Below, one piece after another: positions 46,022 to 64,000 of a DNA stretch of 64,000 nt. Source of the stretch: a virus. Within the stretch, counting starts at the first letter, position 1, and every line of letters starts with the position of its first letter. The DNA lies in the IMG/VR virus record IMGVR_UViG_3300035188_001035, positions 1 through 64,000 of that record. One strand, written 5' to 3'. The notes under the pieces are model-generated. The model ran no database searches. It saw only the letters and a list, made by a program, of their open reading frames with translations, and was not told the origin of the DNA. The position numbers and the translations under genes are program-made.

Positions 46022-47035
46022 TTATATAATAGGGGTCTCGGTTGGTGTCGGGCTTGGCGTTGGAGTCGGAGATGGTGTTGGGCTAGGCGTCGGACTCGGT
46101 GTTGGTGACGGCGTTGGACTTGGAGTCGGGCTTGGTGTTGGTGATGGCGTTGGACTTGGAGTCGGGCTTGGTGTTGGTGATGGCGTTGGACTTGGAGTCG
46201 GGCTTGGTGTTGGTGATGGCGTTGGACTTGGAGTCGGGCTTGGCGTTGGAGTCGGAGATGGTGTTGGGCTAGGCGTAGGACTCGGTGTCGGCGATGGCGT
46301 TGGACTTGGCGTTGGAGTCTCGGTCGGTGTTGGACTTGGAGTAGGACTCGGCGTCGGGCTAGGCATTGGAGACGGTGTTGGACAATTAAGGCTATTGAAA
46401 AACTCCATATTAGAATAACAAGCAATAGTTGGCGTTGGTGTAGGAGTAGGAGTTGGTGGAGGTAATGTTGGTGTACACGCAATTGTAACACAAGGAGTTG
46501 GTGTAGGATTATACAAATGACACGCAACATCTATCCAAATTAATCCACCTTTTTCGCAACAGTTAGATTCTTCTGAAAATCCTTCATACTGAGTATGACC
46601 GAGGAACTGAATAGTCCCGCAATACTGCGAATTATAATTTGGTATTTGTTCTATAGGCATACTAAAATATCTATAATTACAATCAGTATCTAGGGTTGGT
46701 GGCATAATAGCCCCGGAACATAAGCTTAGAGACTCCCAATACATTCCTCGGCCAGATCCATGCACCAAAACCTGAGGAACTCCCTCACTAAAATTTGGTA
46801 TTTGTTTTATATCGTGGTTGAAAAATCGTTGACAAGATTGTGCTCCACCAAGAGTTCCAGAACTACAAGCATCTTCTGTTTCACCATTAATACTCATCCA
46901 TCTTAAACCATCAGCAGTATCATAGGAATGAGTTAATATTTGCTCTTTATTAGCGTTGAATCCTGATAATTGTTCCATAGGTACATTGAAATACCTGTGA
47001 ATTCTACACCACTTTGGGTCTTGATATGCACACAT
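46022..47035 (-). CDS. Cys-containing protein with a C-terminal (PTPS)n tail
   Basis: About 190 aa body with two F.(V/M)P(M/I)EQ repeats, then about 120 aa P/T/S. Confidence 0.78.
46031..46381 (-). repeat. (PTPS)n array 3, inverted relative to arrays 1 and 2
   Basis: Includes about 3.7 perfect copies of a 36 bp unit (46110-46243). Confidence 0.95.
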
Positions 47036-47054
47036 TAGTATTTACCTATCATTA

Positions 47055-50000
47055 CTAAGGTGGTCCACCATCATCTAAACATTCTTCAGTAGTACTAAAA
47101 AGTGGTGGAGATCCTGTTCCTATAATCATATACGTTCCACCAGGACAATCACTAGCGCTTTCATCACCACCCAAACTTGAATCGCATATCAGATACATTG
47201 TTACCAAATCACCAGCTGCTGCTCCGTAACCCAAAGGATTTCTTACGTCATTTATTAACGTTGATCCCAATATACACTCTGAAGACATTGAATGATCAAC
47301 ATTAACTGATATTCCGGATGCGGTGTTAGAAGTAAAGTCATTATCTGCTGTACCAGTTACCAATAATGGTGCACTAGATACGTGCTCCATGATAATGTAT
47401 TCATTATTTTCATGAAGTTTGGCATATATTTTACTGCCTTTATAATAAGTCTTACCTAGATAGTCTTTAACATTAATAAAATTACAACCAGATCCAGCTA
47501 ATTTAGCTTCTCCACTGCACATAGGATCAATACGTTCTGTTAATTGAGCGATAACAATTTTATTAGAGTCTCCTCCTGCTACCCATACTCCTCTTTTTCT
47601 ATCAAACCTTAGATCTATAGGAGCAACTGGCCAAGTTCGTGGATTAGCGAGCCAATTATCCATAAATTTATCAGCTAATCCTGAGTTATTAAAAATGCCC
47701 TTTTCAGTATCTATTTGAATATCTGTAGAATTTGGTATAGGTTTACCATCAGTATCATAACCCCAAGCTTGTAAAACTAGTGGGCCTCTTAGAGCACAAA
47801 ATCCGAAATCATCATGATCGTCGTATCTGTCAGGATCGTGAGAAGATTTAATATCAGCAATATCTTCACCAAATGAAAGCATTAAAATATTAGTACTATC
47901 AGATTCTCCTCTAGAATCCCATTCTTCTAATAACTTCTTAGATAAAATAGGATTTAAATATTTTTGATTAATAGGTAAGCCTTTTGATCCACTATTCTTT
48001 TTATTTGTTGATGAATTTTCATCATCTTGATCCCAGCTTTGAAAATAAGGACTCAGTCTATATTTTCTGCCCTTGATCGATACTGGAGAAATTAAACCAT
48101 CTAATGACATTAATGCCATATTATATACGGCATCTCCTGTGACTGCACTTTCTACTTCTTTTAGAGTATTAAGTCCCATTTCATAATTTTTACGCGTTGT
48201 TGATGATGAACTATCTTCTTCCGAAGTATCTTCTTCTTCTTCTTCTTCTGGTTGTTGTTCTTCTTCGCATTGATCAAACGATGAATCACATATACCGTCT
48301 AAGTTTATAGCAATGCTTGGAGTGCATTCATTATTTGGAGTTGGTGTTGGTGTAGGAGTTGGTTCGTTATTTTCTTCGCCACCGCCTCCTCCATTATCTT
48401 CTTCTTCTAAGATAGCATCATAATATCCACCAATTAATAAGGACGATGGAGAAGCCGAAACATTTGGCGAAGCAACTCGACTTAAAATTTCTTGTATACC
48501 TAAATCTTTTAACCTTTGTGCGATAGCTTTTCTAGTTTCTGCCACCATAATAAGTGAATTTTTTCTTTGTGTTCTAATAATATCTAGTATTCTATTTCTT
48601 TCTTTATTTGCTTTCTGAACCTCATCAGACAAAGCCTTGGCGTATTGACCAAATTTTGCTGAGTATACCTGAAATGAATAATCTGAAGTAACACCGCCCT
48701 CATTATAATTTACATTAATACTCTTGATTGTAGCTATTGTATTACGAAAAACCCCTATACTGTAAGCTGGTGGTTCAGCAAGTGTTACACTACCGCTCTC
48801 TGTTTTATTGGTAAATCTAAGACCAGCATTGGACAAAGCTGTTCCCACAGTATTCATACCAGCATAATCACCATAGGCCCACGGACTCAAATCGGTTTTT
48901 ACAATTTCTGTTGAGCCTATTTGTCCTTGACTACCAACCCAAGGACCATAAACATAAATATTACTTTTCATAGGTATATTAACAGCATAATACATTGCTG
49001 CTGCATTTTCTAGTTTAAAAATATTGATAGCTGTTTTTCTAGTTGCTCCCTTAATTCCTTGTTGATGATTCGATATAAAATCTGTTACATTTTGTGCCAT
49101 ACCGAGCATAGCGGCTAAAGCTCTTAAACCTTGTGTTTTAATTCTATTATCCGCATTAACTGTTAGTCCTAAAAAGGGTGTTTGTATAACCACATCATTA
49201 GTATTGGTTTGAGGATTATTATAAACTTGTCCTGTGGTAGTTAATGATCCATAGATCATATTATTAGTTGGTTGATATACATAATTATTATCAGAAAAAT
49301 CTTTAGATATGATAAAGTCAATATCAAATGCCCCAATCCGTCTTTTTCTACTTCCGGCGGCTGAAATCATACCAAATCCATTAACTTTACCATCTTGAGT
49401 AATAAATAAAGAAGGATCAATTAATCCCATTCTATTAGCTGGTGTTCCGTATCCAGCCTCTACGGGAACATCTGATAATGATACTGAAGTATTATCTGAT
49501 GCCATACCACCGTATAAACCATATGGAGCATGAGCACATATTGTATTAACAGGCACAAGCCAGTATCTACCGTACCATGTTTTAATAAATTGTTGGAACC
49601 ATGCATATGCTCTTTCATATAAAACAACATTTACAGCAGCAGAGAACGCGGTGGATATCCCGGAGATATCGTCCATAGCTCTTGCGAAACCGTTCACATT
49701 TCCATTGTTAGCAAAACCTTGCAAAGCATTAAACGCATCTAAAACACGACGTAAATTGACTTGTCCCAATCCTAATAAATTAATAAGAGTTCCGGACAAG
49801 CTTTGTTTATTATTTTCATTACATATTATACCATATAATTTCCACATTTCCGAACTACCAGTAAAGAGTATTTCTTCTTCGGAAATGGTAAACATAGGAG
49901 GAAATCCATTAATAATAGCGGCTATAGGACTAGTATTAATAGGAACTGTAAAATTAATACCATCAACCTGTATAGGAAATCCTGTGAGATCGTATCCTAA

Positions 50001-50966
50001 CATCATCCGAGCTTTTGTTTCTGTAACAACATTGGCTAAATAATGAACTTGTTCACCAATAACAAATTTATTACTATTCGCATAAATTTCTTCGAATCCG
50101 CGTTCTCCCTTTGTGCAAATACCAGAGGAGAATCCAGCAGATATAATATCTTTTATTGGATTATCATTTGTTGGTATAATAGTTCTATCTATTAGATTAA
50201 TAAATATAGTATATCTTTGGAGTGTAACATAAAAATCACAACCACAAGCATCACATGCCTCACTAATTAAATTTAATAAATTACTTTCAGAATTAGATGT
50301 TCTAGCATATGGTGCTCTAAATAATAATGTATTAATCAACAATTGAAAGTTTAACGATAATCTATATTGTCCATTAGTTGTCACTATACCAGTATTATAT
50401 TGTTGTATAGCGCGTAAAGCATCAACTAGATAAACCTGGTTATCACCAGATGATCTTCCCCAATTGTTACAATTATTAACTCGTGGCCAATTGTGGGTAT
50501 CTTCTCCCGGAGGACACAGTGCAACATCTTTGTGCATCCAAGCGCAAACATTCATAAAGTTATAATTATCTAATGATGGTACTGGACAATAATATCCTTT
50601 TAATAAAACAGATACATACTCTAACATTTTTCTAGGATCAATAACTTGTACCTTATATCTTAATCCATTACTACTTAAACTTTCTGTAGCTGATGTTAGT
50701 ATTCCACCAAAAGATAATCCAGGAGTAGAAGATCCTTGATTAGCATAAACATTAAATAAAACTGGTGTTCCTACTTCTGCTATTTGACCCGCTCCTTGAC
50801 CAGCACAAGGATCAACAACCAATTCCATATCCAAAGTTGATGATGCCGCACCTATGCCTAATACTAGACTAAAATTACTTAGCCATAAATTACTGGATAC
50901 AACTTGTCCACCAGATGGTGTTGTAAATGTAAATAGGGCGCTCCTAGAATCACATTTCGTTGGCAT
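47055..50966 (-). CDS. Large tail/baseplate hub-like virion protein
   Basis: 1303 aa, downstream of the tape measure gene. N-terminal STLDMELV.D...V.DPR hub-like region, acidic/PT linker, RGPLVL.AWGYD.DG and DLRFDRKRGVW motifs. Confidence 0.55.
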   Translation of the reverse strand: MPTKCDSRSALFTFTTPSGGQVVSSNLWLSNFSLVLGIGAASSTLDMELVVDPCAGQGAGQIAEVGTPVLFNVYANQGSSTPGLSFGGILTSATESLSSNGLRYKVQVIDPRKMLEYVSVLLKGYYCPVPSLDNYNFMNVCAWMHKDVALCPPGEDTHNWPRVNNCNNWGRSSGDNQVYLVDALRAIQQYNTGIVTTNGQYRLSLNFQLLINTLLFRAPYARTSNSESNLLNLISEACDACGCDFYVTLQRYTIFINLIDRTIIPTNDNPIKDIISAGFSSGICTKGERGFEEIYANSNKFVIGEQVHYLANVVTETKARMMLGYDLTGFPIQVDGINFTVPINTSPIAAIINGFPPMFTISEEEILFTGSSEMWKLYGIICNENNKQSLSGTLINLLGLGQVNLRRVLDAFNALQGFANNGNVNGFARAMDDISGISTAFSAAVNVVLYERAYAWFQQFIKTWYGRYWLVPVNTICAHAPYGLYGGMASDNTSVSLSDVPVEAGYGTPANRMGLIDPSLFITQDGKVNGFGMISAAGSRKRRIGAFDIDFIISKDFSDNNYVYQPTNNMIYGSLTTTGQVYNNPQTNTNDVVIQTPFLGLTVNADNRIKTQGLRALAAMLGMAQNVTDFISNHQQGIKGATRKTAINIFKLENAAAMYYAVNIPMKSNIYVYGPWVGSQGQIGSTEIVKTDLSPWAYGDYAGMNTVGTALSNAGLRFTNKTESGSVTLAEPPAYSIGVFRNTIATIKSINVNYNEGGVTSDYSFQVYSAKFGQYAKALSDEVQKANKERNRILDIIRTQRKNSLIMVAETRKAIAQRLKDLGIQEILSRVASPNVSASPSSLLIGGYYDAILEEEDNGGGGGEENNEPTPTPTPTPNNECTPSIAINLDGICDSSFDQCEEEQQPEEEEEEDTSEEDSSSSTTRKNYEMGLNTLKEVESAVTGDAVYNMALMSLDGLISPVSIKGRKYRLSPYFQSWDQDDENSSTNKKNSGSKGLPINQKYLNPILSKKLLEEWDSRGESDSTNILMLSFGEDIADIKSSHDPDRYDDHDDFGFCALRGPLVLQAWGYDTDGKPIPNSTDIQIDTEKGIFNNSGLADKFMDNWLANPRTWPVAPIDLRFDRKRGVWVAGGDSNKIVIAQLTERIDPMCSGEAKLAGSGCNFINVKDYLGKTYYKGSKIYAKLHENNEYIIMEHVSSAPLLVTGTADNDFTSNTASGISVNVDHSMSSECILGSTLINDVRNPLGYGAAAGDLVTMYLICDSSLGGDESASDCPGGTYMIIGTGSPPLFSTTEECLDDGGPP

Positions 50967-50979
50967 AATATAATTCCTT

Positions 50980-53430
50980 CTAACTAATATTTAGTTTATT
51001 TTGATATTCAGTAAATATTAAATTTACTAATTCATTAGAATTATTATTTAGAATAATCCTAGTCTCATTCTGATATAATAAATTATCCGCTAGATAAGTA
51101 TCATCTCCTTTAATTATATATACACCCGGTATTAAATTAGTAAAAGTAGTATCTTCATTAAATGAATTATAATAATTTTTTGGACCAATAATAGCACATT
51201 GTGTATTTTGTGGACTAATTTTAACAGATAGGGTCAGTCCTTCTGATTCTATAGTATTAATTTCACCAAGGCTGGTAGACTCATAAGAGGATCCACCAAA
51301 CAATGATTTGACCCAAGTTGATATAATAAAAGAGTTTTCTAATGTGTCTGTAAGGACACTAGGAATAAAAGTATTGTTTTGGTTACCTATGTAAACTAAG
51401 ATATCACCATATTTTATCAAGTCTAAAATTGATCTATTATAAATGGTCAAGACCTGTTGCATATTTAAAAAATGATTATCATAATCTATAGTATTATTAT
51501 TAAAGCTTAAATATTTTGGAATATTATTAAATCTATCTTTAATTCTAACAATCATATATCTTTCATCTAAATTTGAAACATATTGAGTATCTTTAATAAG
51601 ATTATTTTCAAATAAAATATTTTTCAATTCAGAATCTGTTGAATTAAAAGTATAATATTCTATAGAATAAATATTATTTAATGATTCTTCTGGTGTGAAG
51701 AATGTGCTTTGGCCCTGAATATCTAAACTAATTTCACCAGTATGTTTAGGATCTGTTATACTATATATATAAATATTATTATAGTTATTTGAGTTATTAA
51801 TAACTTTGATTAATTGTTTAATGTGCTGTAAATAGTTAAAAGAATTTGGATATATATCACATATAATATTATTAATATCTATATTATAAGTTAGTAAATT
51901 AAATTTTTGTAAAAAATTAATTGTAGTATCATAAGATAATGGTGAATATAGATTTTTTAATATGCTGGTAGATATTTCTTCTATGATAATATCATTATCT
52001 GTTGAAGAACCGATAGCAATACCAGCACAACCACCGTTAAAAAATTCTCGATATCCGGTACCGTTTATAATCAGGCTTCCCTTAATCAAACTAGGATTGT
52101 CACTATCAATTTCATTAGATTTTAATCCTAGTGTCATGTCAAAAGATTCTTTTGTTTTTAAATTCAACAAAGATACCACAGAAGATGGATCCTGTACTCC
52201 TGGTGAAATATGAAAATAATAAAACCATTCATTAGAATTGTTTCCTAATTTTAATAATTCAATAGTACCATCAGTAATAGAATATTTATCTAACATATTT
52301 CTAACAACAAGAAACTCATTTTGCACACCATTAATATTAAAATATATACTACTATTAATTGACAAATTTTGTATGGTTTGCCAAAGAGTAGAGTTTTGTA
52401 CAATATATTTATATGGTATCAGTACTGTATCAAATATATCTCTTGTTAAAACTAAATTCTTAGTAACGATTGGATTGTCTGGTTGAAGTCTAATATTAAT
52501 ATTCATTGGACTAATATTAGGTATAATAAAAGACGATTCTAATGAACACCGATTATCAAGTGGTGACGGATTCACATACATTGTATAATTACCGGGTGGA
52601 AAAGCATTATAGAATTTATAATGATATGTCTTTTTATCATAATTATTAATTTGTGTATTAGTAATATCTTGGTATTGAATATAATCTGTAGATGGTCCTA
52701 ATGGTCCAGACTGATTAGTGTAGAAATTAAAAGAATCAACACTTGTAATTTCTGTCACAAAAGGATTATTAAATTTAGAATATACATATGTTTGTTCTGT
52801 AGTATTATTAATAAATTTTAAATCAAACGGACCGTATCCAGTAAGCTTGAATTCTAGTGAGCCATAGGAATCATATAGAGCTGGTGGATATATATTATCG
52901 TATTGAATACTGATAGTATCATTTTTAACAGTAAACTCTGTGCCGGTAACAGAACAATTATTGCTATCTATAATCGTGGGTAGGTATGTTCCGGGAATTA
53001 AGTTATCTATAGTAAAAACATCATTATTATTGATAGTTGTTGTAGAATCTCCGAGAATAACTCTATATGGACTAATTCCTCCAATAATTTGAGCTTTATA
53101 ATATCCATTATTAAAACAACTATACTCTGATTGTTGTATTTCATTCAAAATTAATTCATCTGGTGATTCTATAGATATTGTTGTTATTGAACTATATGTA
53201 TTATCAATTAAACTTTTGAGTTTGTATGAATAAGTTCCATTCGATAAATTAAACACTTTTCTGGTATCATTAGAGATTTGATTAGCTGAAATATTATTTG
53301 ACCACTCCACAACATACGAAGCAAATGATACTATTTCTGCTTGGTTTGTAAATTGAATAGATGTTATTCTTATCGATCCGCTACTATTACTATAGCATTT
53401 ATTATCTGTTTTAATATATTTTGTGATCAT
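50980..53430 (-). CDS. Virion protein with SprB/Ig-like beta repeats
   Basis: NLSNGTY, GGISPY, L.PGTY...I.DSNNC. Confidence 0.5.
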   Translation of the reverse strand: MITKYIKTDNKCYSNSSGSIRITSIQFTNQAEIVSFASYVVEWSNNISANQISNDTRKVFNLSNGTYSYKLKSLIDNTYSSITTISIESPDELILNEIQQSEYSCFNNGYYKAQIIGGISPYRVILGDSTTTINNNDVFTIDNLIPGTYLPTIIDSNNCSVTGTEFTVKNDTISIQYDNIYPPALYDSYGSLEFKLTGYGPFDLKFINNTTEQTYVYSKFNNPFVTEITSVDSFNFYTNQSGPLGPSTDYIQYQDITNTQINNYDKKTYHYKFYNAFPPGNYTMYVNPSPLDNRCSLESSFIIPNISPMNINIRLQPDNPIVTKNLVLTRDIFDTVLIPYKYIVQNSTLWQTIQNLSINSSIYFNINGVQNEFLVVRNMLDKYSITDGTIELLKLGNNSNEWFYYFHISPGVQDPSSVVSLLNLKTKESFDMTLGLKSNEIDSDNPSLIKGSLIINGTGYREFFNGGCAGIAIGSSTDNDIIIEEISTSILKNLYSPLSYDTTINFLQKFNLLTYNIDINNIICDIYPNSFNYLQHIKQLIKVINNSNNYNNIYIYSITDPKHTGEISLDIQGQSTFFTPEESLNNIYSIEYYTFNSTDSELKNILFENNLIKDTQYVSNLDERYMIVRIKDRFNNIPKYLSFNNNTIDYDNHFLNMQQVLTIYNRSILDLIKYGDILVYIGNQNNTFIPSVLTDTLENSFIISTWVKSLFGGSSYESTSLGEINTIESEGLTLSVKISPQNTQCAIIGPKNYYNSFNEDTTFTNLIPGVYIIKGDDTYLADNLLYQNETRIILNNNSNELVNLIFTEYQNKLNIS

Positions 53431-53439
53431 AATTAGCTT

Positions 53440-54903
53440 TTATCCGCATTTAATAAATTCTGTAGTTTTGCTATAAGTATATTTTCCTTCAGTTCTTTTA
53501 TTTTTTAATTGCCACCAACTATTATATGGGGCTATTGCTGTTAACCAATAATTATCAACGCACTCTATTAGTGTTGGCATTTTGGTAGTATCACAATTTT
53601 TTAAACTACCTCTTATAGTTACAGTAGCTCTATGAGGAGTATCCGCAACAACCTGTACTATAGCTTTATTACTATAAGGAATAGGTATTTCAATAGCCCT
53701 ATAAACAGGTAATGATTCATCCACACTTAATTCGATAGAACCATCTCCCACAGGATCACAACTATTAATATCATCAAATTGAGCACTAAAAGTTATTTCT
53801 CCGTTTACTGGCGATTTATTTAAAGAGCTGGATATTCTTTGATAGCAATACTGGAAACCCGAAGATGGACACGGATTTAAGGTTAATACACAATTACCAG
53901 CGATACCATTCAGGGCGACAAAATCACTTGATGGCCAAGTTCCATTAATTAATAATGGTTGTAATTGATTTAATGCTTGTAATGCATTGGCGTACCTTTC
54001 TTCTGTACAACTTTTATTATCTAATATATCTGTAGTAGCACTAGATAATCCTTTAATAGTTCCGCTAATGTTTCTGAAACGTTGATTTTTAACTTGATCT
54101 TTTTTATCTTCTGTATTAATATCAACAAATGCATATGGTGCGCATGATCCTTGGCTAACATACATATCGAATGACCATGATACTAAACCATTACCAGTAT
54201 TAATATCTAAAGATTTTGTATCTAACCATTTTGACCATCCGCTATATTTTCCTATAGGGTGTGACGAATCACACGCATTTAAAGCCATTAATGCTTTGGC
54301 TCTTTCTTTTATAATATCAATAGAATTTTGAATACCATTATATGATGGTATGCCACACACATCTCTACCATAAGAAGCAACATTAAGTCTTCCAGATATT
54401 TTAATATAGCTTTTAGATACCCCCATAATTTGATCAACAGAACCAAGGTTATTAACCTCTCCAATAATTTGAATGTTTTCATCATATTCTAATAAAAACA
54501 AAGCTTTAGTTATACATGTTTGTCTTAGAAAATCAGGGTCCGGATTAACTGCTGGTGATCCATCTACAGTTTCTATAGCTATTTGTATAGTATAATTTGC
54601 AGTATATGGTTGATCACCCATAGTAATGTCAACACTGCGTATTCTGCCATTACCATTCAAAAAATCGCTACCACCAGAACATCCTATCATTAAATTAATA
54701 CAACTATAATTAGTTTGATAAGTATTTAATTCAGCAATTTTTTGTTTAATATTTTTATCTACAAGTGTTCCACTCAAAGTAACAATTAGAAAACCACCAA
54801 TAGTATGTTCTCCAGCTTTTGTATATTCATACGATGTATTTACGAATGGTGCTGGTCGTAAACTAGTGCCATTTAAAAATACAGAATCAAATTTAGAACT
54901 CAT
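53440..54903 (-). CDS. Tail-associated protein (paralog of 54916..56394)
   Basis: Shares YA.VD, R.I.G.I.GL and KS...G.I.F motifs with the neighbouring gene; lies in the tail region. Confidence 0.55.
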   Translation of the reverse strand: MSSKFDSVFLNGTSLRPAPFVNTSYEYTKAGEHTIGGFLIVTLSGTLVDKNIKQKIAELNTYQTNYSCINLMIGCSGGSDFLNGNGRIRSVDITMGDQPYTANYTIQIAIETVDGSPAVNPDPDFLRQTCITKALFLLEYDENIQIIGEVNNLGSVDQIMGVSKSYIKISGRLNVASYGRDVCGIPSYNGIQNSIDIIKERAKALMALNACDSSHPIGKYSGWSKWLDTKSLDINTGNGLVSWSFDMYVSQGSCAPYAFVDINTEDKKDQVKNQRFRNISGTIKGLSSATTDILDNKSCTEERYANALQALNQLQPLLINGTWPSSDFVALNGIAGNCVLTLNPCPSSGFQYCYQRISSSLNKSPVNGEITFSAQFDDINSCDPVGDGSIELSVDESLPVYRAIEIPIPYSNKAIVQVVADTPHRATVTIRGSLKNCDTTKMPTLIECVDNYWLTAIAPYNSWWQLKNKRTEGKYTYSKTTEFIKCG

Positions 54904-54915
54904 ATTATCTCCAAT

Positions 54916-56394
54916 TTATACTGTACATTGTTGTAAATAATCTTTTTTAAGAGTTAAGCTATTTAGTGTTCTATTGATATTGTTATTAACAATAATAAAT
55001 CCTGTACCATCTCCACCACCTTGAAGATTAACAGTATCTGTTGCCTTGCCTATGTATTGTTCTATTAGCTTTTGTAGTTTATTTTTTAAATCATTGATAA
55101 TACAAGAGTCAAATGCAGCACAAGAATTTCCATTGGACGATAAAGATGCTGTAAACTCATATTTAAGAGGTCTGAATGTTTTTAAGTCTTGTAATAGTGT
55201 TCCATACATCGGAATAATATGTTCAACAACTATTGGCTCTCGATAATTAATATCAACTGTTAAATCAGTTCTAAATCCATTTTCTTCGCACGAATCGACA
55301 GTAGACCAATCGAAAGTAAAAGAAATAGAGCCATCAACTCTAGATTTAGATATTGTTGATGCAGAAGGTTTGATACAAAGAGCATTATCCAGTGTGGTGG
55401 TTTCGCAGGCTGTGATAGGGTTATTAGGACAATTTGGCTGTTTGATCAAAGATAATTCTGAACCTTCCCATGAACTTAAATTAGAGAATCTATTTTTAAT
55501 AACAGCTAATACAGAATCAGCATTAGCTAGTTTGGAATCCGTACAAGTATCAGACAAGTCTATTAGATCTGACCATGATACGGATATCAGACCATTAATA
55601 TTCCCTGTTATTGATCTTTTTTCGGTTTTATCTTGATAGTTTTTATTGTTTGCAAAAGTTAAATCTACTAGAGCATACTTTTGTGTGGAGCATTGAGGAA
55701 TCAGGATAATGGAAGCAGAAAAGGACACGGATCCATCTATATTAGTATCCATGCTTCTAGTTTGTAATAATTTAGTCCATGTTTTATATTCGCTAAATAT
55801 TTCATGTTGTGGTCCAAATTTTACTAGTTTACGCAAAACAGTCATGGCTTTTTTAAACGTATCGCCATCATCATTACATACTGGCTGACATTTAATATTT
55901 ATTTTATTAGTAAATCTTACAAAAGTTTTAGAAAATTCTCCATTATTGTATAAATAACCATGGGAATCCTCACCTAATTCTATCTCTTCTGATTGATCTA
56001 AACTAGTTACACAATCAGATGCTACTATTCCTAAAGTATTTGGTGGTATAGTATCAATTTTACTTTTAAGTTCTATACTATAAGCACCAAGATTAATCCA
56101 TGCAGGATCAGCTCCCTGCTCTATATTAACATTAATTATTCTTGCCAAACCAGAATAAAATGAATCAAGGGTAACAGTAATGCACTGTGAGTCCCGACCA
56201 ATATTTCTTATATTTTGTAGTTTACTCATAACCTGACTGCCGGTGATAGAGCCGTCATCAGAAACACTAACAGTACCAGTAACAGTATAAGATACTGAAC
56301 CTCCTATAATTTCCCCTGATCGTGTTCTATAGTATTCTGGTCTACTTGTTACTTTAGCATCTTCTAATAATATTCCTGCTATAGTTACTGCCAT
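54916..56394 (-). CDS. Tail-associated protein (paralog of 53440..54903)
   Basis: Similar size (492 vs 487 aa) and the same shared motifs. Confidence 0.55.
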   Translation of the reverse strand: MAVTIAGILLEDAKVTSRPEYYRTRSGEIIGGSVSYTVTGTVSVSDDGSITGSQVMSKLQNIRNIGRDSQCITVTLDSFYSGLARIINVNIEQGADPAWINLGAYSIELKSKIDTIPPNTLGIVASDCVTSLDQSEEIELGEDSHGYLYNNGEFSKTFVRFTNKINIKCQPVCNDDGDTFKKAMTVLRKLVKFGPQHEIFSEYKTWTKLLQTRSMDTNIDGSVSFSASIILIPQCSTQKYALVDLTFANNKNYQDKTEKRSITGNINGLISVSWSDLIDLSDTCTDSKLANADSVLAVIKNRFSNLSSWEGSELSLIKQPNCPNNPITACETTTLDNALCIKPSASTISKSRVDGSISFTFDWSTVDSCEENGFRTDLTVDINYREPIVVEHIIPMYGTLLQDLKTFRPLKYEFTASLSSNGNSCAAFDSCIINDLKNKLQKLIEQYIGKATDTVNLQGGGDGTGFIIVNNNINRTLNSLTLKKDYLQQCTV

Positions 56395-56417
56395 AGTCCT
56401 TGTCCTTATAATAAATT

Positions 56418-59400
56418 TTAATTATTGCTTGAACTAATTGTTATCCAATTATCATTACCAGCGTGAACTAATGATATGTTTGTTGATGGTGCTAAACTTG
56501 TTAATTCTGTGCCATATCCGCTTTTTCTTATAAATATATAAAAACCAGTATCTCTATTTACTATAGTAAATTTTTTACCCATATATAGTCCGGTACCATT
56601 AGGTAAATATAATATAGCTGGATTAACAGTTGGAGTTAAAAATTGATATTCTGCATCGTTTGCGGATAAGTATGTAGATGCTCCAGATAAAGAACCAGAA
56701 GTTGCTAGGTTTTCATATCTTAATCTACTATTATTTATGGTGTCGGTACTATCTGTCTGGTAAATCATTTTATGAATTGAACTAGTGCCAGTTGGCATAG
56801 TAGTTGGAGTTATATTTGTACCTGTTGGTGTTGATAATGAATTAATAATAACTCCACTATTTAATATAACACCACTATTAAACGAAGATATTCCATAGAT
56901 ATTTACGGCTCCACTTACACTAATACCAGATGCAATTTGTGCATTACTAACAGTGATATTGGTAAATATACCAGAAACAAATGTGCTTGTACCAGAACTC
57001 ACTATGCCCGATGAAAATATTCCAGTGCCGCCTGCAATATTTATACCTGAATAAAAGGTTGCAGATCCCGAACTAATAATACCAGAAGCAAATGTTCCTG
57101 TTCCTATTACAATAATATTATCATCAAAAGTAAATTCATCATCAGAATAAAAATATATTCCAGTAGACTTTACTAATAATCCATTAGTGTTATTAGCAAA
57201 AATATGTATTCCGCTATTGCCTACTACGGTGCGATTATGTCCAATTACAATATTATCTGTTCCGCTAGCACTGGAGTTCATACCATGAATAATATTATTT
57301 AATCCTGTTGCATATGATTCTATACCACAAACTATATTATTTAAACCAGAGACTGATGATGATTGTCCAAAAATAATTCCGCCAGAACCATATATACTAT
57401 TATTATAGCCAACGATAACACCTGTCTCTTCGATATCTGCATAGTTACCATTACCGACAGCAAATACACTAGCAAAAAATGAAGAATTATCAAGAGTATT
57501 ACTTCTGCCAACAGCAACAGATCCATTTGCAACAACAGTATTATTCTCTCCTATAGCTACAGAATAATCTCCATGAGCACCATTATCATAGCCCATACTA
57601 ACACTATATAGGCCACTACTAGTATTATTATTACCAAGTGCTATTGCATAATTTTCATATGCATTATTATTGTTTCCCAATAGAACTATACCAGTAGCTA
57701 TAACTCCTGATGTAAGTGCGTTCATATTAGAACCAACCACCAGAGCACCACTACCAGAGCAAGAGATGTCTCGACCTAATAAAATATTATTTGTTCCACT
57801 ACTATTGATATCTGTACCATATACTATATTACCACTATTAGTAATAGCATTATTTAATCCATAAACGATATTTGTTCCACTAACACTATTATATCCTACA
57901 GAACAGGTATTTTTACCTAAATCAATAACTCCTGATTTATTGCCATCTACCAATACAAAAACTTGATATTTACTATTTTCTAATCCTGAAGTTAATGCTG
58001 TTACATTATTACGTAATAATAAACCAGTAGTTGGCATATTAGAACTATTCATAAAAACGAAACCAATAGTTTCGTTGATTCCACTAGACAGAATACTAGT
58101 ATTTATAAGATTAAAATTGATATCACTATTAACACTAGTGTTATAGCTAATGTCTCCGGATTGACTTATTTTAATATACTTTGTATTATCATAACAAAGA
58201 TATGTAGAATTGGATCCGCTAGCAGATATTCCTGATCCTCCAATAATCCAAATATTTGTGCCAGATACTGAATGATCATTGCCTATAATACCACAATAAG
58301 TTGAACCAGAAGACAACACATTATCATTACCTAATAGTATGCTGTTTTGTGCGGATGACGAGTTATTGGATCCTACTTGTATATTTTGTCCTATATTATC
58401 AGAGAATGTTCCTATAACTATACCATCAGTATTATCATTATCTGATCCTACTGTTAAACCGTCTGTTGAAATAATAAGATTGTCTTTTACTATACCATTA
58501 TCATAAATTGAAGCTTTAATAGCAGACTTTTCTGATCCTGCTGTTGCAGAATCGATGTACGCTGATAATTGAACGTATGGTACTCCATTATTACTAGTAT
58601 TAAGTCCGGAAAAAACTAGAGCGCCAATTCGATCATTACTAATATTTCCACTAGTACTACTATTATGAATTGATAGTTCAGGACCAGTACCACTACTTTC
58701 TATAGTTAGTCCATTAGTTTCTGAAGTTTTAATATGAACAGTATCAAGAGGATTAGAATTATTAATACCAATATTATTGGTGCTAGCATCAATAAATAAT
58801 AAATGGGTTAATCCACTACCCTCTATTCTAAAATCTTTATCCAGTGACTGTTCATTGAATACTACTGTGCCGCCAGAAATCGGTATAATAACATCCGCTG
58901 TTACAAGATTACCCGTTCCACCTATTTGTAATGAAGAATTTGAACTATTCCAATTTAATGCTGCTACTCCGCTAAAAGCTTGATTATTAACAATCTGAAT
59001 AGTACCATCTATACCATAAGCGGATGTAGAGTCTTGAATAGGATCTAAAAATAACCAGCCACTTTGTGATGGTACAGAAACTAATTGTATATAGTCATTA
59101 AGAATTGATAATGAATCTGATGAATTGCCATTAACAGTTTCTGTGCCGTATGGTAAAAACTCCACAGCATTTGCTTGTTCGTATTGACCACCTATAGTTT
59201 GATTTAAAAGAAATCCTAAAATGATAGGATCTTCTCCGACTACTGTGGGTAACGAAACCTGTACGTTAGATGATGATGCATCAATAATATACGTGGTAGG
59301 TATATAGTCAGCAGTAAAATTAGCTGATTTTGATTCTACATTATTAAATGATGTATTGACTCTATCTTGACTAATAATAGTTTCTATGAACTTGGTACCA

Positions 59401-59675
59401 CCAGAAAATGATACTAAATTATTGCTACTGCTTGAAGCTATTACAGTTTGTCTAACTAATTGATCTATGCCTCCACTACTCGATATATATCCTGTGCCTA
59501 TTTCCCATTCAAAATCATTATCTATTCTATAGATATAATAAGATAATAAATTATTGGCACCTATTACATCAGAAAAACTTCTATAACCAGTAATAGCGCC
59601 AGATAATACAAGATTACCTGTTCCATTAGTTGTTGATGATTCTTTTACTCTATTAGCGTAGTATTTAATTGACAT
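56418..59675 (-). CDS. Tail fibre/spike with YadA-head-like beta-roll repeats
   Basis: N-terminal RVKESSTT.GTG...WEIGTG fibre anchor; many 14-aa (S/A)(I/V)A(I/L)G..N repeats. Confidence 0.7.
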   Translation of the reverse strand: MSIKYYANRVKESSTTNGTGNLVLSGAITGYRSFSDVIGANNLLSYYIYRIDNDFEWEIGTGYISSSGGIDQLVRQTVIASSSSNNLVSFSGGTKFIETIISQDRVNTSFNNVESKSANFTADYIPTTYIIDASSSNVQVSLPTVVGEDPIILGFLLNQTIGGQYEQANAVEFLPYGTETVNGNSSDSLSILNDYIQLVSVPSQSGWLFLDPIQDSTSAYGIDGTIQIVNNQAFSGVAALNWNSSNSSLQIGGTGNLVTADVIIPISGGTVVFNEQSLDKDFRIEGSGLTHLLFIDASTNNIGINNSNPLDTVHIKTSETNGLTIESSGTGPELSIHNSSTSGNISNDRIGALVFSGLNTSNNGVPYVQLSAYIDSATAGSEKSAIKASIYDNGIVKDNLIISTDGLTVGSDNDNTDGIVIGTFSDNIGQNIQVGSNNSSSAQNSILLGNDNVLSSGSTYCGIIGNDHSVSGTNIWIIGGSGISASGSNSTYLCYDNTKYIKISQSGDISYNTSVNSDINFNLINTSILSSGINETIGFVFMNSSNMPTTGLLLRNNVTALTSGLENSKYQVFVLVDGNKSGVIDLGKNTCSVGYNSVSGTNIVYGLNNAITNSGNIVYGTDINSSGTNNILLGRDISCSGSGALVVGSNMNALTSGVIATGIVLLGNNNNAYENYAIALGNNNTSSGLYSVSMGYDNGAHGDYSVAIGENNTVVANGSVAVGRSNTLDNSSFFASVFAVGNGNYADIEETGVIVGYNNSIYGSGGIIFGQSSSVSGLNNIVCGIESYATGLNNIIHGMNSSASGTDNIVIGHNRTVVGNSGIHIFANNTNGLLVKSTGIYFYSDDEFTFDDNIIVIGTGTFASGIISSGSATFYSGINIAGGTGIFSSGIVSSGTSTFVSGIFTNITVSNAQIASGISVSGAVNIYGISSFNSGVILNSGVIINSLSTPTGTNITPTTMPTGTSSIHKMIYQTDSTDTINNSRLRYENLATSGSLSGASTYLSANDAEYQFLTPTVNPAILYLPNGTGLYMGKKFTIVNRDTGFYIFIRKSGYGTELTSLAPSTNISLVHAGNDNWITISSSNN

Positions 59676-59692
59676 GTTAATTAATTTTACTC

Positions 59693-62600
59693 CTATCTTC
59701 TTATATTAATATTAATACCTGGCATAGCGTCTCTGATCGCATTTTCTACAGCGCCGATAACTTCATCTCTGAGTTGTGGCATATCTTGTTGTACAGCTTC
59801 TCCATTCATTTCAACAGTGACATTTACTGGTATAGATCCATTAATATTCAATGATATGTTTGATGGTATTCTGGATATGGCTCTTTCCAAAGATCGTAAT
59901 GATGTATTAAATCCATTAATAGTGTTATTAAAATTATTGGATGCTGAATTTATAGATGCTGCCGCAACACTAAGTTTAGCCGCGCCAGACTCTATACTAT
60001 TTAATTGTCCAAAGGCTGAGGATATCTTATTACCCGTTTGAACAAAAGAGTCAATTACGGATTTTAATGAATCCACAGATCTACTAAAGTTGTCAAATGC
60101 ACTATTTAACGATTCAATATCTAATACACCACTTTGACTAGGACGGCCACCGCCACTATTACCTCCAGCACCGTATGATCCTATCATTCCACCATTTTGA
60201 AAATAGTCTGGATTTTGACCATTATTAATAGACTTTAATAGTGATAGATTATTCTTAGTAGATTTAGCATTTACAACAAATTCACCAGGAGTTAGCATAG
60301 CAGGAACAGTATCAGTACCTTTAGGTTTAAAGTTAATATATTTTCCATCATTAGCATATATTAATCCACCATTAGCATGGTGCTGAATATCAATAGAATG
60401 AGCATACTTTTCTTGGGCTATCTTTGCTGCTTCAATACCTAATTTATCAGCAAGAGGGGACAAATGAAAATGAACTTCTTTTCTAAACAAATCCATTAAT
60501 TTTATGGATTCTAATGTAATTGGAACATCTGTTGCTATGGCTCTGCTAGTACCGGGTGGAGCGCCTGGTCCTTCTATAAATGTATTAGGTCCCTCCACCG
60601 CTTTGATTTTAGCTTTGTTTTTTATTTCCTCTACCCAGCTAATTAATGCATCTTCATCAGCACCAGTACGTGTTGCATATGTATCGATTGAATTATTCAA
60701 TACGTCTTTTATGGTTTCTCCTGGTTTGGGTTGATAACCAGCTGCGGTTGATAATTCATCAGCATACATTCTAGCAGCTAAATTTGATTGATCTGTTACA
60801 CGAGCTATATTAGATTCAAGAATTGGCTCACTTGTTCTCGTTAAGACCAATCTAGCATCTGTGATAGGAGTAGTACCATCCCACGCATATCTAATGGCTG
60901 TTTGAGCAGCTTCTTCTAGAGTTGTGGTTGATGGTAATGAGCCTCGGGGAACATTAGTTTCGGTACCAACATATTTACCAGGACCTAGGTTACCCATACC
61001 TGGTCTATTGGGATCTGTGAATTTAGGACTCTCTCCAAATTCTCCTATAAAAATACCCTTGCTATCTCTCATTTGAGCATCAGGCAAATCTGCCCATGGA
61101 TATTTAGTGCCATGAACACCAGCCACTTCTGCTTCTCTCATTCTTTGAGCAAGATTTTTTGCAGCTAACTCGATATCTGCTTCATTTGGTTTAAAATTAG
61201 CTCCTTCAAGTAATCGTGCATTGGCTTGTTTACTTAAATGTTTGGACATGCCTAACTCTGCTAATTTAAATGCTCCATGAGCAGCAACTGTAAAAGCGGC
61301 CATTAATAAAGCTTCTTTTGCTCCTTCATTATCTCCTGTAGCATATGCTATTCCGGCAGCGGTTGTTGGAGCGCCAGCTTCAACAGCGAATGCTGCTCCG
61401 GTTCCTAATCCGGCTGTTCCTATCATTGTGGCCATAACGGCAGGATCAGCAACACTCAAACCTAATTCTACAGTTTTTCCAACTATGGGTAAACCAGTAA
61501 TATCAGATACAACTTGTCCGGTTTCACTAGGAACGCCGGTAAAAACTTCCCCTTTTTTATAGTCTTTACCAGCATTGAGCAACTTTCGTGTTTGTCTAGC
61601 GGTAATTTTAGGATCTGGTGGAGTAAAGATTCCGTTTAGTTGTTCTTCAAAAAATTCTCTCCATAAACGACCATTAAAATATCTACTATATCTTTTTTCT
61701 GCTGCTTTTCTTCTTTTTATTTCTTCTTCAGTAATTGTTGATTGTGACAGATCCATCATTGGCGATCCACCAGCATATGGATTTGGTCCAAGATCTTTAA
61801 TTTCTCCTCCAAATGGATTATATTTTTTAAGTGGCTTGTTTGTTCCATCAGCAAAATAATTCATGCCATTTTTTTGTAATGAACCACCACTATTTATACT
61901 CTTAAGTAATGGTAAGTTCTTTCTGGTGGCTTCACGATTAACAACAAATTCACCCGGAGTCAACATTGCCGGAACAGTATCGCTACCTTTTGGTTTAAAA
62001 TTGATGTATTTACCAGTACTAGCATATGTGGTTGGTAATTTTGTATTGTTTGATGTTAATGCTTTAACTGCGGCCCCTTCTAAATCCTCTCTATCAACAG
62101 TTCTTAATATTTCAGCAATAGTATCTAATTTTTTATTTGTTAATACTAGAGCATTAGTAAACGAATCCTGTATAACGCTAGGCTTTAATACTGTTGCTGG
62201 ATCAGGAGCAGCACCGGCAGGAGCAGCACCGGCAGGAGCAGCAGGAGCAGCAGGAGCGGCATTACCAGCGGCAGGAGGTTCTGGTTTATTAGGATCTCGT
62301 TTTAATTCAAATTCTTGTGGTTTTATAGATTCTTTTAATAGTTTGGCAGATTCTGTTACGGTAGCTGACCATAACTGAGCAGATTTTTCAACCTCAGTAA
62401 ATAAAATATTAGCACCAGCTTCCATTCTTTCTTTTAATTGTTCTGTGGCTTTACGTTGCTCTTCAAATAACATTCTAGCACGACCAACCTCAGCTTCTAT
62501 TTCAGGATTTTCTCTGCCTGGACGTAACCCTAATTGATTTTTAATAAAGTCTAAAGTTGCAGCTAAAGTTGGATCTTCTCTACCTATTTTTGTAAGTACA

Positions 62601-64000
62601 TTATCAAAAAATTGCTTAGTAAGTTCTTCTCCTTGTGCTTGTGGCACCATTGAAACGATTTTTTCAAGGCCAGCTACTGCTTGAGGTAATTCAAAATTTT
62701 GAATATTACCAGTTAATGCTCTAGAATATGCGTCTACAGAATTGACAAAATCCACTTGCCATTCTGGATTATTAACATTTTTGATAATATCGGTAAGAAT
62801 ATTACGACCACCCTGTTGTGCTTGCCTTAAATCTTGAATTTTAGCCAATGACAATGCTGCTCTTTGACCATCAGTAGCTAACTTATTTAGGGCTAATCTT
62901 AATTTTTCACCTTCGGCAGTAATTTTACCAAGTTTATTAGTTAATAATGATACTTCTTTCTCTCTATCTTTTTGGTCTGGTATTGTGGCTGCCCTATCAA
63001 GTTCTTTTTGAATACCAGCCCGTAAATCATCAGCAAAATCTAAACGTTTTCTAATCTCTAATGGATCTAATGTTCCAGCTTGTCTTATACCAGCACCAGC
63101 AGCACCTTGATCTTGTGCAATATTAGGGATAGTGGTTAGTCTACTGATTTCATCATTAAATGGCTTGAATAATCTATCCATTGAAACTGTTCTATTTAAA
63201 GCTTTATCGATACTGTTGGCTCCTTCTGTTCTAATTTTTCCAGCTTGAATTTCTAGATTAGTGATTTGAACTAGAGCGTCAGAATATTCTTGTAGTCTTT
63301 GATTAACCTCATTTAGTGTTTTTAATCTGGCTTCTTCACTTCGTTTTAATACGGGACTTAGTGCAACAACTTGATCAATAACATTTTTTAAAGCTTTTTG
63401 ATCATTTATCAAATCTTTAGCATTAGCTAATGGACCACCCTCTCTACTAGGCTTGGTAATAAGATCTGATACTTTACCACCAATAGATTTGGCAAAATCT
63501 TCACCAACTACATTTTTAAGCGCATCAGTAACTTCGTTAGCAATAAATGCAGTATCAACTTCGTCTCCGGGGTCTCTTGCTCCTAGTGTAGCATTTCTGG
63601 CTATTGATTTACCAATAATATTTGGTAGATCTTGAGTTAGAATTTTTTCAGTTAAAATTCTTTGTTTAAAAACATCTGTTAATTCTTTATCAAAACCTAA
63701 TCCACCAGTAACATTCTGAATTGCTCTGGCAATATCATCATTAGATGAGGCAAGTAAATTATTTAAAACTGTTAAGTTTTTATTACTAGCTTTAGATATT
63801 GTTGCTTTACCACCAAGTCTAGTACCAATAGATAATTCTCTGTCTCTGGCAGCATCCTGGAATACATCACTAGCTTTGTTAATAGCAGCTTCAAAAACAT
63901 TTAACGCATTATTTAATCTGTCTACTTGTATTCTTGTTACAGTTCCTAGTCTATCAGCTTCTGCTTGTTTTAATATCGGCTCTCCTGCTCTACCTAATGC
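59693..64000 (-). CDS. Tape-measure-like protein, C-terminal part (5' end lies outside the window)
   Basis: I checked the frame and it is open from 64000 to 59693 (at least 1435 aa). Helical, with two G(S/T)DTVPAMLTPGEFVVN motifs typical of tape measure C-termini. Confidence 0.75.
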   Translation of the reverse strand, partial: ALGRAGEPILKQAEADRLGTVTRIQVDRLNNALNVFEAAINKASDVFQDAARDRELSIGTRLGGKATISKASNKNLTVLNNLLASSNDDIARAIQNVTGGLGFDKELTDVFKQRILTEKILTQDLPNIIGKSIARNATLGARDPGDEVDTAFIANEVTDALKNVVGEDFAKSIGGKVSDLITKPSREGGPLANAKDLINDQKALKNVIDQVVALSPVLKRSEEARLKTLNEVNQRLQEYSDALVQITNLEIQAGKIRTEGANSIDKALNRTVSMDRLFKPFNDEISRLTTIPNIAQDQGAAGAGIRQAGTLDPLEIRKRLDFADDLRAGIQKELDRAATIPDQKDREKEVSLLTNKLGKITAEGEKLRLALNKLATDGQRAALSLAKIQDLRQAQQGGRNILTDIIKNVNNPEWQVDFVNSVDAYSRALTGNIQNFELPQAVAGLEKIVSMVPQAQGEELTKQFFDNVLTKIGREDPTLAATLDFIKNQLGLRPGRENPEIEAEVGRARMLFEEQRKATEQLKERMEAGANILFTEVEKSAQLWSATVTESAKLLKESIKPQEFELKRDPNKPEPPAAGNAAPAAPAAPAGAAPAGAAPDPATVLKPSVIQDSFTNALVLTNKKLDTIAEILRTVDREDLEGAAVKALTSNNTKLPTTYASTGKYINFKPKGSDTVPAMLTPGEFVVNREATRKNLPLLKSINSGGSLQKNGMNYFADGTNKPLKKYNPFGGEIKDLGPNPYAGGSPMMDLSQSTITEEEIKRRKAAEKRYSRYFNGRLWREFFEEQLNGIFTPPDPKITARQTRKLLNAGKDYKKGEVFTGVPSETGQVVSDITGLPIVGKTVELGLSVADPAVMATMIGTAGLGTGAAFAVEAGAPTTAAGIAYATGDNEGAKEALLMAAFTVAAHGAFKLAELGMSKHLSKQANARLLEGANFKPNEADIELAAKNLAQRMREAEVAGVHGTKYPWADLPDAQMRDSKGIFIGEFGESPKFTDPNRPGMGNLGPGKYVGTETNVPRGSLPSTTTLEEAAQTAIRYAWDGTTPITDARLVLTRTSEPILESNIARVTDQSNLAARMYADELSTAAGYQPKPGETIKDVLNNSIDTYATRTGADEDALISWVEEIKNKAKIKAVEGPNTFIEGPGAPPGTSRAIATDVPITLESIKLMDLFRKEVHFHLSPLADKLGIEAAKIAQEKYAHSIDIQHHANGGLIYANDGKYINFKPKGTDTVPAMLTPGEFVVNAKSTKNNLSLLKSINNGQNPDYFQNGGMIGSYGAGGNSGGGRPSQSGVLDIESLNSAFDNFSRSVDSLKSVIDSFVQTGNKISSAFGQLNSIESGAAKLSVAAASINSASNNFNNTINGFNTSLRSLERAISRIPSNISLNINGSIPVNVTVEMNGEAVQQDMPQLRDEVIGAVENAIRDAMPGININIRR
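60218..62026 (-). repeat. Two 141 bp diverged direct repeats (60218-60358 and 61886-62026) inside the tape measure gene
   Basis: Both encode YA..GKYINFKPKG(S/T)DTVPAMLTPGEFVVN...T..NL.LLKSIN.G. Confidence 0.9.

Follow-up and report, generated by a model that had tools for sequence, protein, structure and literature searches.

The DNA studied here comprises the leading 64 kb of a virus record in IMG/VR (IMGVR_UViG_3300035188_001035) that spans 92,962 bases and whose completeness is estimated at 64%; these 64,000 nucleotides are referred to below as the window. From position 59693 to 64000 its minus strand is a single open frame that runs past the window end. The complete gene (G000:C1:59693-72301, minus strand) encodes a 4,202-amino-acid (aa) tape measure protein (TMP), P0002. 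The subject of this analysis is an insert of about 470 aa in the C-terminal part of the protein, enclosed by two copies of a repeated element that we call the joint. A first-pass annotation had read the insert as a swappable, injected effector with an ADP-ribosyltransferase (ART)-like domain.

A giant tape measure protein with five joints

The identification of P0002 as a TMP, already made in the first-pass annotation, is confirmed by PF10145 (PhageMin_Tail), which matches aa 182-388 with 82.3 bits (cut-off 33.2), and by the TMP PHROGs 4211, 28 and 1272, which match the N-terminal 500-650 aa. Two TMP hallmarks, a C-proximal element of the lambda gpH type and hydrophobic segments, are also present, as seen from profile matching and hydropathy. 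The extent of the gene had to be corrected, as the open reading frame (ORF) continues beyond the window. The full-length protein contains no cysteine. The window holds the following features of the gene:

59693..64000, minus strand: window part of the TMP gene, its last 1,435 aa (ORF list, translation, PF10145 and TMP PHROGs)
62201..62281, minus strand: Ala/Pro-rich (A-A-P-A-G)n array, aa 3341-3367, directly upstream of joint 4 (translation)
61802..62059, minus strand: joint 4, aa 3415-3500, with its core motif at 61940-61981; common to 31 of 75 related TMPs
60386..61801, minus strand: flagged cassette proper, aa 3501-3972, about 470 aa (phmmer, coverage by relatives, family libraries)
61253..61465, minus strand: Gly/Ala-rich hydrophobic hairpin, aa 3613-3640 and 3663-3683 (hydropathy scan)
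60884..61117, minus strand: H-G-T (H3730), G-P-G-K-Y-V-G (Y3777) and A-I-R-Y-A pattern (translation positions)
60152..60385, minus strand: joint 5, aa 3973-4050, reading A-N-G-G-L-I-Y-A, core motif (60272-60313) and Y-F-Q-N-G-G
59693..60151, minus strand: conserved C-terminus of the TMP, aa 4051-4202 with the stop codon; 36-45% identical to the corresponding ends of L103, L109, L110 and L133, which are full-length relatives

Both joints in the window read G-[ST]-D-T-V-P-A-M-L-T-P-G-E-F-V-V-N in translation. The two D-T-V-P-A-M-L-T-P-G-E-F-V copies noticed in the first-pass annotation are therefore real, but the whole protein contains five, with motifs at aa 601, 1712, 2369, 3441 and 3997. The pair in the window (aa 3441-3454 and 3997-4010) is separated by 542 aa, instead of the roughly 510 given before. 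The consensus, derived from the five copies and then from 65 copies at related loci, starts with aromatic-A-x-G-G, which is followed after 5-15 residues by D-T-V-P-A-M-L-T-P-G-E-F-V. A stretch of about 15 residues, including a short helix that ends in L-x-x-x-N, then leads to a closing aromatic-x-x-G-G site, giving a total length of 60-80 aa. Joint 4 is flanked by degenerate versions of the aromatic-x-x-G-G sites, with Y-A-S-T-G on its upstream side and F-A-D-G-T on its downstream side. Joint 5 shares 57-68% identity with joints of related TMPs and matches lambda gpH and Douge gp16 by profile.

When the 65-sequence joint profile was compared with the PDB, only tape measure chains were matched. 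Douge gp16 (PDB 8zdo_S) is hit twice, at aa 961-1028 and 1410-1473 (E 2e-14), lambda gpH once, at aa 725-786 (E 0.002), and two further TMPs weakly; no T5 chain is listed at E up to 1. Douge gp16 is the 1,699-aa TMP of a cultured mycobacteriophage, and its two joints lie about 380 aa apart. A scan of one genome per prokaryote species returned 398 joint matches. Ordinary prophage TMPs usually carry a single joint, 80-140 aa from the C-end, and multiple joints occur only in aquatic metagenome-assembled contigs, in TMPs with an N-terminus 43-57% identical to that of P0002. Judged by its profile, the joint is the same element that ordinary TMPs bear once near the C-end. A tblastn search of GenBank phages with the joint (86 aa) and the N-terminal core gave no match.

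At the DNA level the repeat copies are 68-81% identical, over stretches of 62-142 nt. The joints are old copies kept at the protein level, neither recent duplicates nor an assembly artefact. AlphaFold2 modeling of the joint monomer from the 65 sequences gives an extended stretch with short helices (pLDDT 62) and no globular domain. The (A-A-P-A-G)n array upstream of joint 4 contains three more units in P0003, a 99%-identical version of the protein described below, indicating that the length of the array is unstable.

Exchange of cassettes between the joints

IMG/VR was searched with an alignment of N-terminal cores of about 500 aa. At least 510 loci carry the core at 52-60% identity. They belong to uncultured phages, on contigs of up to 238 kb; among GenBank phages the core has no match at E 1e-10. 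We extracted 75 related TMPs from 80 loci. Many of them ended at the 10-kb flank. Their lengths run from 2,500 to over 3,850 aa, and the retrieved part of each contains 0-5 joints. The number of the 75 relatives that cover each part of P0002 by blastp differs strongly along the protein:

core, aa 1-500: 73-74 relatives
five joints: 29-54 relatives
aa 800-1250: 14-27 relatives
aa 1240-1520: 2 relatives
aa 1527-1760: 10-22 relatives
coiled-coil region, aa 2800-3200: 33-36 relatives
flagged insert, aa 3601-3900: 0 relatives

Individual cassettes of P0002 are thus covered in 2-36 of the 75 relatives, and the segments between joints come and go independently. The ends of the homology blocks lie 15 aa or less from an aromatic-x-x-G-G site in 33% of cases, versus 10.6% for random positions; none of 2,000 circular shifts gave a value as high. 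The same behavior is seen at close range in P0003, a 4,615-aa protein that is encoded on a separate contig and is 99% identical to P0002. An unrelated segment replaces aa ~640-800, exactly between Y-A-x-G-G and F-N-x-G-G, and an extra cassette of about 345 aa, together with a sixth joint, follows joint 5. The protein cluster of P0002 is found on 18 contigs.

These data support swappable modules fenced by repeats in this TMP family. The proposal that the flanking repeats act as module boundaries agrees with blocks that end at aromatic-x-x-G-G sites and with the exchange of modules among relatives. The proposal that the insert itself is swappable holds for the family, in which segments are independent and P0003 displays a swap; for the flagged cassette, which is identical in its only two carriers, no exchange was seen. 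Likewise, the alignment of TMP homologs that had been suggested as a check reveals variable cargo between the repeats across the family; for the flagged cassette it yields just presence or absence.

The other cassettes that occupy the same slots in relatives are discrete units of 45-60% identity. Bounded by F-G-R-G-G and F-A-D-G-G, the cassette at aa 1246-1515 of P0002 (L004:8740-9567, minus strand, beyond the window) contains an HExxH motif, H-E-S-F-H (about aa 1370), a likeness at the motif level only. Pfam does not recognize this cassette, and only two of the 75 relatives (L146 and L149) share it, at 44-46% identity. The adjacent cassette at aa ~1527-1700 (L004:8190-8730, minus strand) is 50-60% identical in 10-22 relatives, always beside a joint of the joint-2 type, and has no Pfam match. 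A D-x-D-x-T type motif, F-D-F-D-K-T-L-V (HAD_2, E 0.2), is present in the cassette at aa ~806-1240 (L004:9580-10890, minus strand), a resemblance at the level of the motif only. This cassette shares 24-46% identity with 14-27 relatives, and its blocks end at the flanking G-G sites. In the other cassettes of P0002, in P0003 and in seven related TMPs, Pfam detects nothing besides PF10145 and TMP_N. An IMG/VR scan with the end of the coiled-coil segment before joint 4 (aa 3000-3440) returned no relative.

The flagged cassette and its possible fold

The first ~40-90 residues of the flagged cassette are weakly common to a few relatives, while aa 3601-3900 are common to none of the 75. In a phmmer search over 1.84 billion representative proteins, the cassette matches itself and a 301-aa fragment only, and a word-indexed homolog search over long proteins recovers just P0002 itself and P0003. 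Pfam, PHROGs, PDB sequences and GenBank phages (tblastn) contain no match, nor do the metagenome contig and IMG/VR scans. The flagged cassette is an orphan. Because it has no homologs to align, no usable fold prediction could be obtained: the single-sequence AlphaFold2 model of aa 3700-3980 has a pLDDT of 39.8, which makes it unusable, and is largely helical after aa 3830.

The Gly/Ala-rich hydrophobic hairpin reported in the first-pass annotation is found at its place, ahead of a part that does not resemble a coiled coil. The two segments of the hairpin have a mean Kyte-Doolittle value of 1.4-1.5 over 19 aa, and three further hydrophobic clusters are located at aa 457-490, 2152-2346 and 2481-2582 of P0002. 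The ~270 aa after the hairpin (aa 3700-3972) contain 7.0% Pro, 1.1% Trp and 2.6% Tyr, compared with 3.0% Pro, 0.2% Trp and 0.5% Tyr in the coiled-coil region (aa 2700-3300). By composition, this part looks globular rather than ruler-like. A likeness to polymorphic toxins, also proposed, is not supported by the architecture: the insert is internal, followed by joint 5 and the conserved C-end of the TMP, and no immunity-type gene is evident beside it, the next gene encoding 1,085 aa.

Among the alternatives for the function of the insert, the first is that aa ~3720-3960 form a highly divergent ART of the H-Y type, akin to ART-PolyVal (PF18760) and Tox-ART-HYD2, which would modify a host target in an NAD+-dependent manner after ejection of the TMP. 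We regard this as possible but on the unlikely side. The active site of ART-PolyVal comprises a His on strand 1, a Tyr on strand 2 and an Asp on strand 5 (PMC5512222). Our reference set consisted of ART-PolyVal domains from two bacterial genomes, extended by 40 small proteins (42 sequences) and, in a later and wider version, by 120 proteins (122-domain hidden Markov model, HMM). The consensus of the 42 reads Y-H-G-T ... G-x-G-F-x-F-T ... A-x-x-Y-A ... V-x-P-V-Y-L-S-L-Q-N-P ... G-Y-D-G ... P-E-Q-I-K-S, and the H-Y-type signature quoted in the first-pass annotation agrees with its first three blocks. The three motifs assigned to that signature are where they had been placed (V-H-G-T at 61106-61117, G-N-L-G-P-G-K-Y-V-G at 60965-60994 and A-I-R-Y-A at 60884-60898), in consensus order and at compatible spacing. 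Among 860,836 residues, taken from frames of 200 aa or more in all the DNA retrieved, the pattern HG[ST]...G.G.[YF]...A..[YF]A occurs in the insert only, and five shuffles gave none. The pattern was set after the sequence had been seen, so its rarity is suggestive only. In the ESM Atlas, the whole insert has an ART-PolyVal/LPD22 cluster at rank 2 (0.88), with ART-PolyVal on 92% of its members, and the top three clusters for aa 3715-3900 alone (0.83, 0.82 and 0.80) all bear ART-PolyVal. These scores are, however, below the 0.9 line of the tool, and one third of shuffled proteins likewise receive ten consistent families; since the language model may read the same short motifs, the result is no independent evidence.

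No profile method ties the insert to any ART family. The PF18760 model (family cut-off 31.2 bits) gives no match at E up to 10, and hmmscan of sub-pieces of the insert at the same E detects no ART family. Our own HMMs from 42 and 122 domains, run with filters off, score -1.3 and -0.5 bits, so that bridging through the 2, 40 and 120 ART-PolyVal proteins as intermediates did not reach the insert even with the wider model. The hhalign probability is 0.1% against the ART-PolyVal family and 0.3% against the ART-like cassette of relatives described below. In an ordered block test with position-specific scoring matrices (block-PSSM), 103 of 1,000 and 140 of 500 shuffles score as well as the insert, and the best chain differs from the one proposed. 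The proposed blocks score -1.8 (V-H-G-T), +3.6 (G-P-G-K-Y-V-G), +6.6, -1.5 and -1.7 bits. The Asp of G-Y-D-G on strand 5, invariant in the 42-sequence alignment, has no ordered counterpart: W-D-G at aa 3807-3809 breaks the order, and with G-P-N-T the position would be taken by an Asn. For the invariant P-E-Q-I-K-S block, which accounts for the last of these scores, the insert offers no more than L-E-S-I-K-L, with only E, I and K kept. An ART-like fold for the second part of the cassette is therefore a tentative, unproven assignment. An ART of the R-S-E type was considered as well; reading by eye, no R ... S-T-S ... E-x-E is found at plausible spacing.

ART-like cassettes probably do occur elsewhere in this TMP family, as judged from a cassette that matches the N-terminal half of ART-PolyVal. 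Ten relatives carry this conserved unit of about 225 aa, which is directly preceded by an aromatic-A-x-G-G site and reaches as far as the next joint. It was found through weak matches of our own ART-PolyVal HMM (alignment A6: L138:16418-17128, L099:14435-15100, L101:10646-11392 and six more) and opens with L-Y-H-G-[ST]-x-T-G ... G-Y-G-Q-G-x-G-F-Y-V-Y ... G-K-P-M-V-L-x-F. In hhalign, A6 matches the N-terminal half of ART-PolyVal with 89% probability and E 2e-6 (92% in a local run). Four of the nine A6 members weakly match DUF3990, a family that is co-annotated with PF18760 on several proteins. Pfam itself gives no match to the A6 cassette, and its C-terminal half has no clear G-Y-D-G or P-E-Q-I-K-S. 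The cassette is present in neither P0002 nor P0003, and A6 does not match the flagged insert. A second, degenerate ART-like stretch, Y-H-G-T ... G-A-H-Y, was seen at residues 679-757 of an ORF on the bacterial contig L086; in this protein, which is of the polyvalent type, it comes right after a genuine ART-PolyVal domain.

Alternatively, the insert might be non-enzymatic, a structural piece of the ruler or channel in which an additional membrane hairpin and a spacer lengthen the tail or the trans-envelope conduit. Gly/Ala-rich hydrophobic segments do occur four times in P0002, and in lambda and T5 the hydrophobic segments of the TMP have been linked to channel formation (PMC12617516; bioRxiv 10.1101/2022.09.20.507954). 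The lack of any enzyme family in the insert by Pfam and sub-piece hmmscan, the largely helical character of the low-confidence model past aa 3830 and the orphan status, which fits weakly constrained filler, point in the same direction. We nevertheless consider this reading improbable, given that the Pro, Trp and Tyr content of aa 3700-3972 exceeds that of the coiled-coil region and gives this part a globular look. In addition, the cassettes of relatives in the same slots are conserved as discrete units and one of them is ART-like, suggesting that the slots usually hold folded domains. The weakest alternative, an artefact of metagenome mis-assembly or a recent tandem duplication without function, can be set aside: although the contig is an incomplete one from an uncultured metagenome, the frame is open over 12.6 kb, the repeat copies have diverged in DNA as described above, a second contig encodes the 99%-identical P0003, the protein cluster is seen on 18 contigs, and the same layout recurs in dozens of related TMPs.

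A proposed passenger cassette and its relation to known systems

We propose that the stretch encodes a lineage-specific passenger cassette of a cassette-type giant TMP, with a probability of about 0.72. The backbone, common across a large family of uncultured phages, has three parts: the N-terminal core (500 aa, with PF10145), some 600 aa of coiled coil and about 200 aa at the C-end. The cassettes sit between these parts, fenced by joints. By analogy with other TMPs, the protein would reside in the tail lumen and leave the tail ahead of the DNA. The hairpin may then insert into a membrane of the host, a role also suggested for hydrophobic segments in lambda gpH* and T5 pb2*, leaving the part behind it as a payload exposed in the host envelope or cytoplasm. 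Cleavage at the G-G sites within the joints may release the cassettes, much as cleavage of T5 pb2 separates its hydrophobic stretch from its enzyme motif. A more specific scenario, in which the TMP is an injected polyprotein cut at the aromatic-x-x-G-G joints and the cassette is the membrane-anchored founder of a new and highly divergent clade of H-Y-type ARTs that acts on a host target at DNA entry, appears to us distinctly unlikely.

Several points weigh against the passenger cassette. Exchange of the flagged cassette itself was never seen, its sole two carriers being 99% identical. As no cassette of P0002 has a significant Pfam match, the notion of a passenger with its own function rests on analogy. 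A protease candidate of the lambda-gpK-like JAB or NlpC/P60 type was not found in the record, which is an estimated 64% complete; the HExxH cassette, present in 2 of 75 relatives, is too rare for a general protease, and the AlphaFold2 model of the joint says nothing about cutting. Ten large same-strand ORFs around the TMP (290-1,303 aa; window 46022-59675 and L004:13388-17523, both minus strand) have no PHROG match at E 0.001, and the tail context is consequently inferred from the TMP itself.

A close parallel is offered by pb2 of T5 (pb2* and pb2C). While the tail is being assembled, cleavage separates its hydrophobic stretch from its peptidase motif; both pieces are kept in the tail and both are ejected into the host envelope (bioRxiv 10.1101/2022.09.20.507954). 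pb2 is a TMP that works as a polyprotein, with a hydrophobic stretch ahead of an enzyme motif, and P0002 may be of the same kind. T5 has one small C-terminal peptidase piece, whereas P0002 has a row of cassettes. The Thermus phage P23-45 encodes a 5,002-aa TMP, gp96, fused to a virion RNA polymerase that is active in early infection (PMC10770324), a giant TMP bearing an enzyme unrelated to tail building. That enzyme is a single fusion at the N-terminus, the abstract describes no repeated joints or exchange of cassettes, and gp96 has no sequence relation to P0002.

The joint itself is shared with lambda gpH and Douge gp16. Lambda gpH is cut to gpH*, which forms a periplasmic channel, in a Gly-rich zone; neither the cleavage site nor the protease is known (PMC12617516). 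The joint element at aa 725-786 falls in gpHC, just past the Gly-rich cut zone, and its residues are not visible in the structure (PMC12617516). In Douge gp16 only residues 1658-1699 are traced, and both joints are outside this part (PMC13033339). In contrast to the one or two joint copies of these proteins, P0002 has five and P0003 six.

Polyvalent proteins of phages and conjugative elements, including those with ART-PolyVal (PMC5512222; PF18760), combine two or more recognizable, mutually unrelated effector domains, often along with a zincin MPTase. What the proposed reading of P0002 has in common with them is the idea of a single injected chain that holds many such domains, which proteolysis may separate. 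They differ in that P0002 is a tail protein and brings a repeated joint of its own, and in P0002 no polyvalent-protein domain reaches significance, only PF10145 does. Tape measure proteins are never mentioned by Iyer et al. 2017 (PMC5512222), where the word 'tape' has 0 occurrences. In the literature searched, no paper was found that describes a TMP layout of joint-fenced cassettes in a row.

Mycobacteriophage TMPs with embedded cell-wall hydrolase motifs, which act on the host at entry, are said to have been described by Pedulla in 2003 and by Piuri and Hatfull in 2006. The motifs are short, belong to known families and sit in TMPs of normal length, unlike the cassettes of P0002.

TMPs are the first phage proteins to enter the cell, and the published enzyme-bearing examples are single fusions, namely the peptidase piece of T5 and the RNA polymerase of P23-45. 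If TMPs with exchangeable cassettes are indeed widespread, the tail lumen would constitute a general store of pre-made entry effectors, and the joint would become a candidate for the processing signal of lambda gpH. The flagged cassette, an orphan of ~470 aa that combines a membrane-type hairpin with a rare ART-like motif pattern, is of narrower practical value, as a cheap experimental target.

Nearly all of the tail module of this phage lacks annotation, and no sheath family is matched in the record. The gene for the 1,085-aa protein next to the TMP lies on the strand of the TMP gene and starts 18 bases downstream of it. On the opposite strand within the TMP gene, a 171-aa ORF (window 61863-62378, plus strand) is most likely a chance frame.

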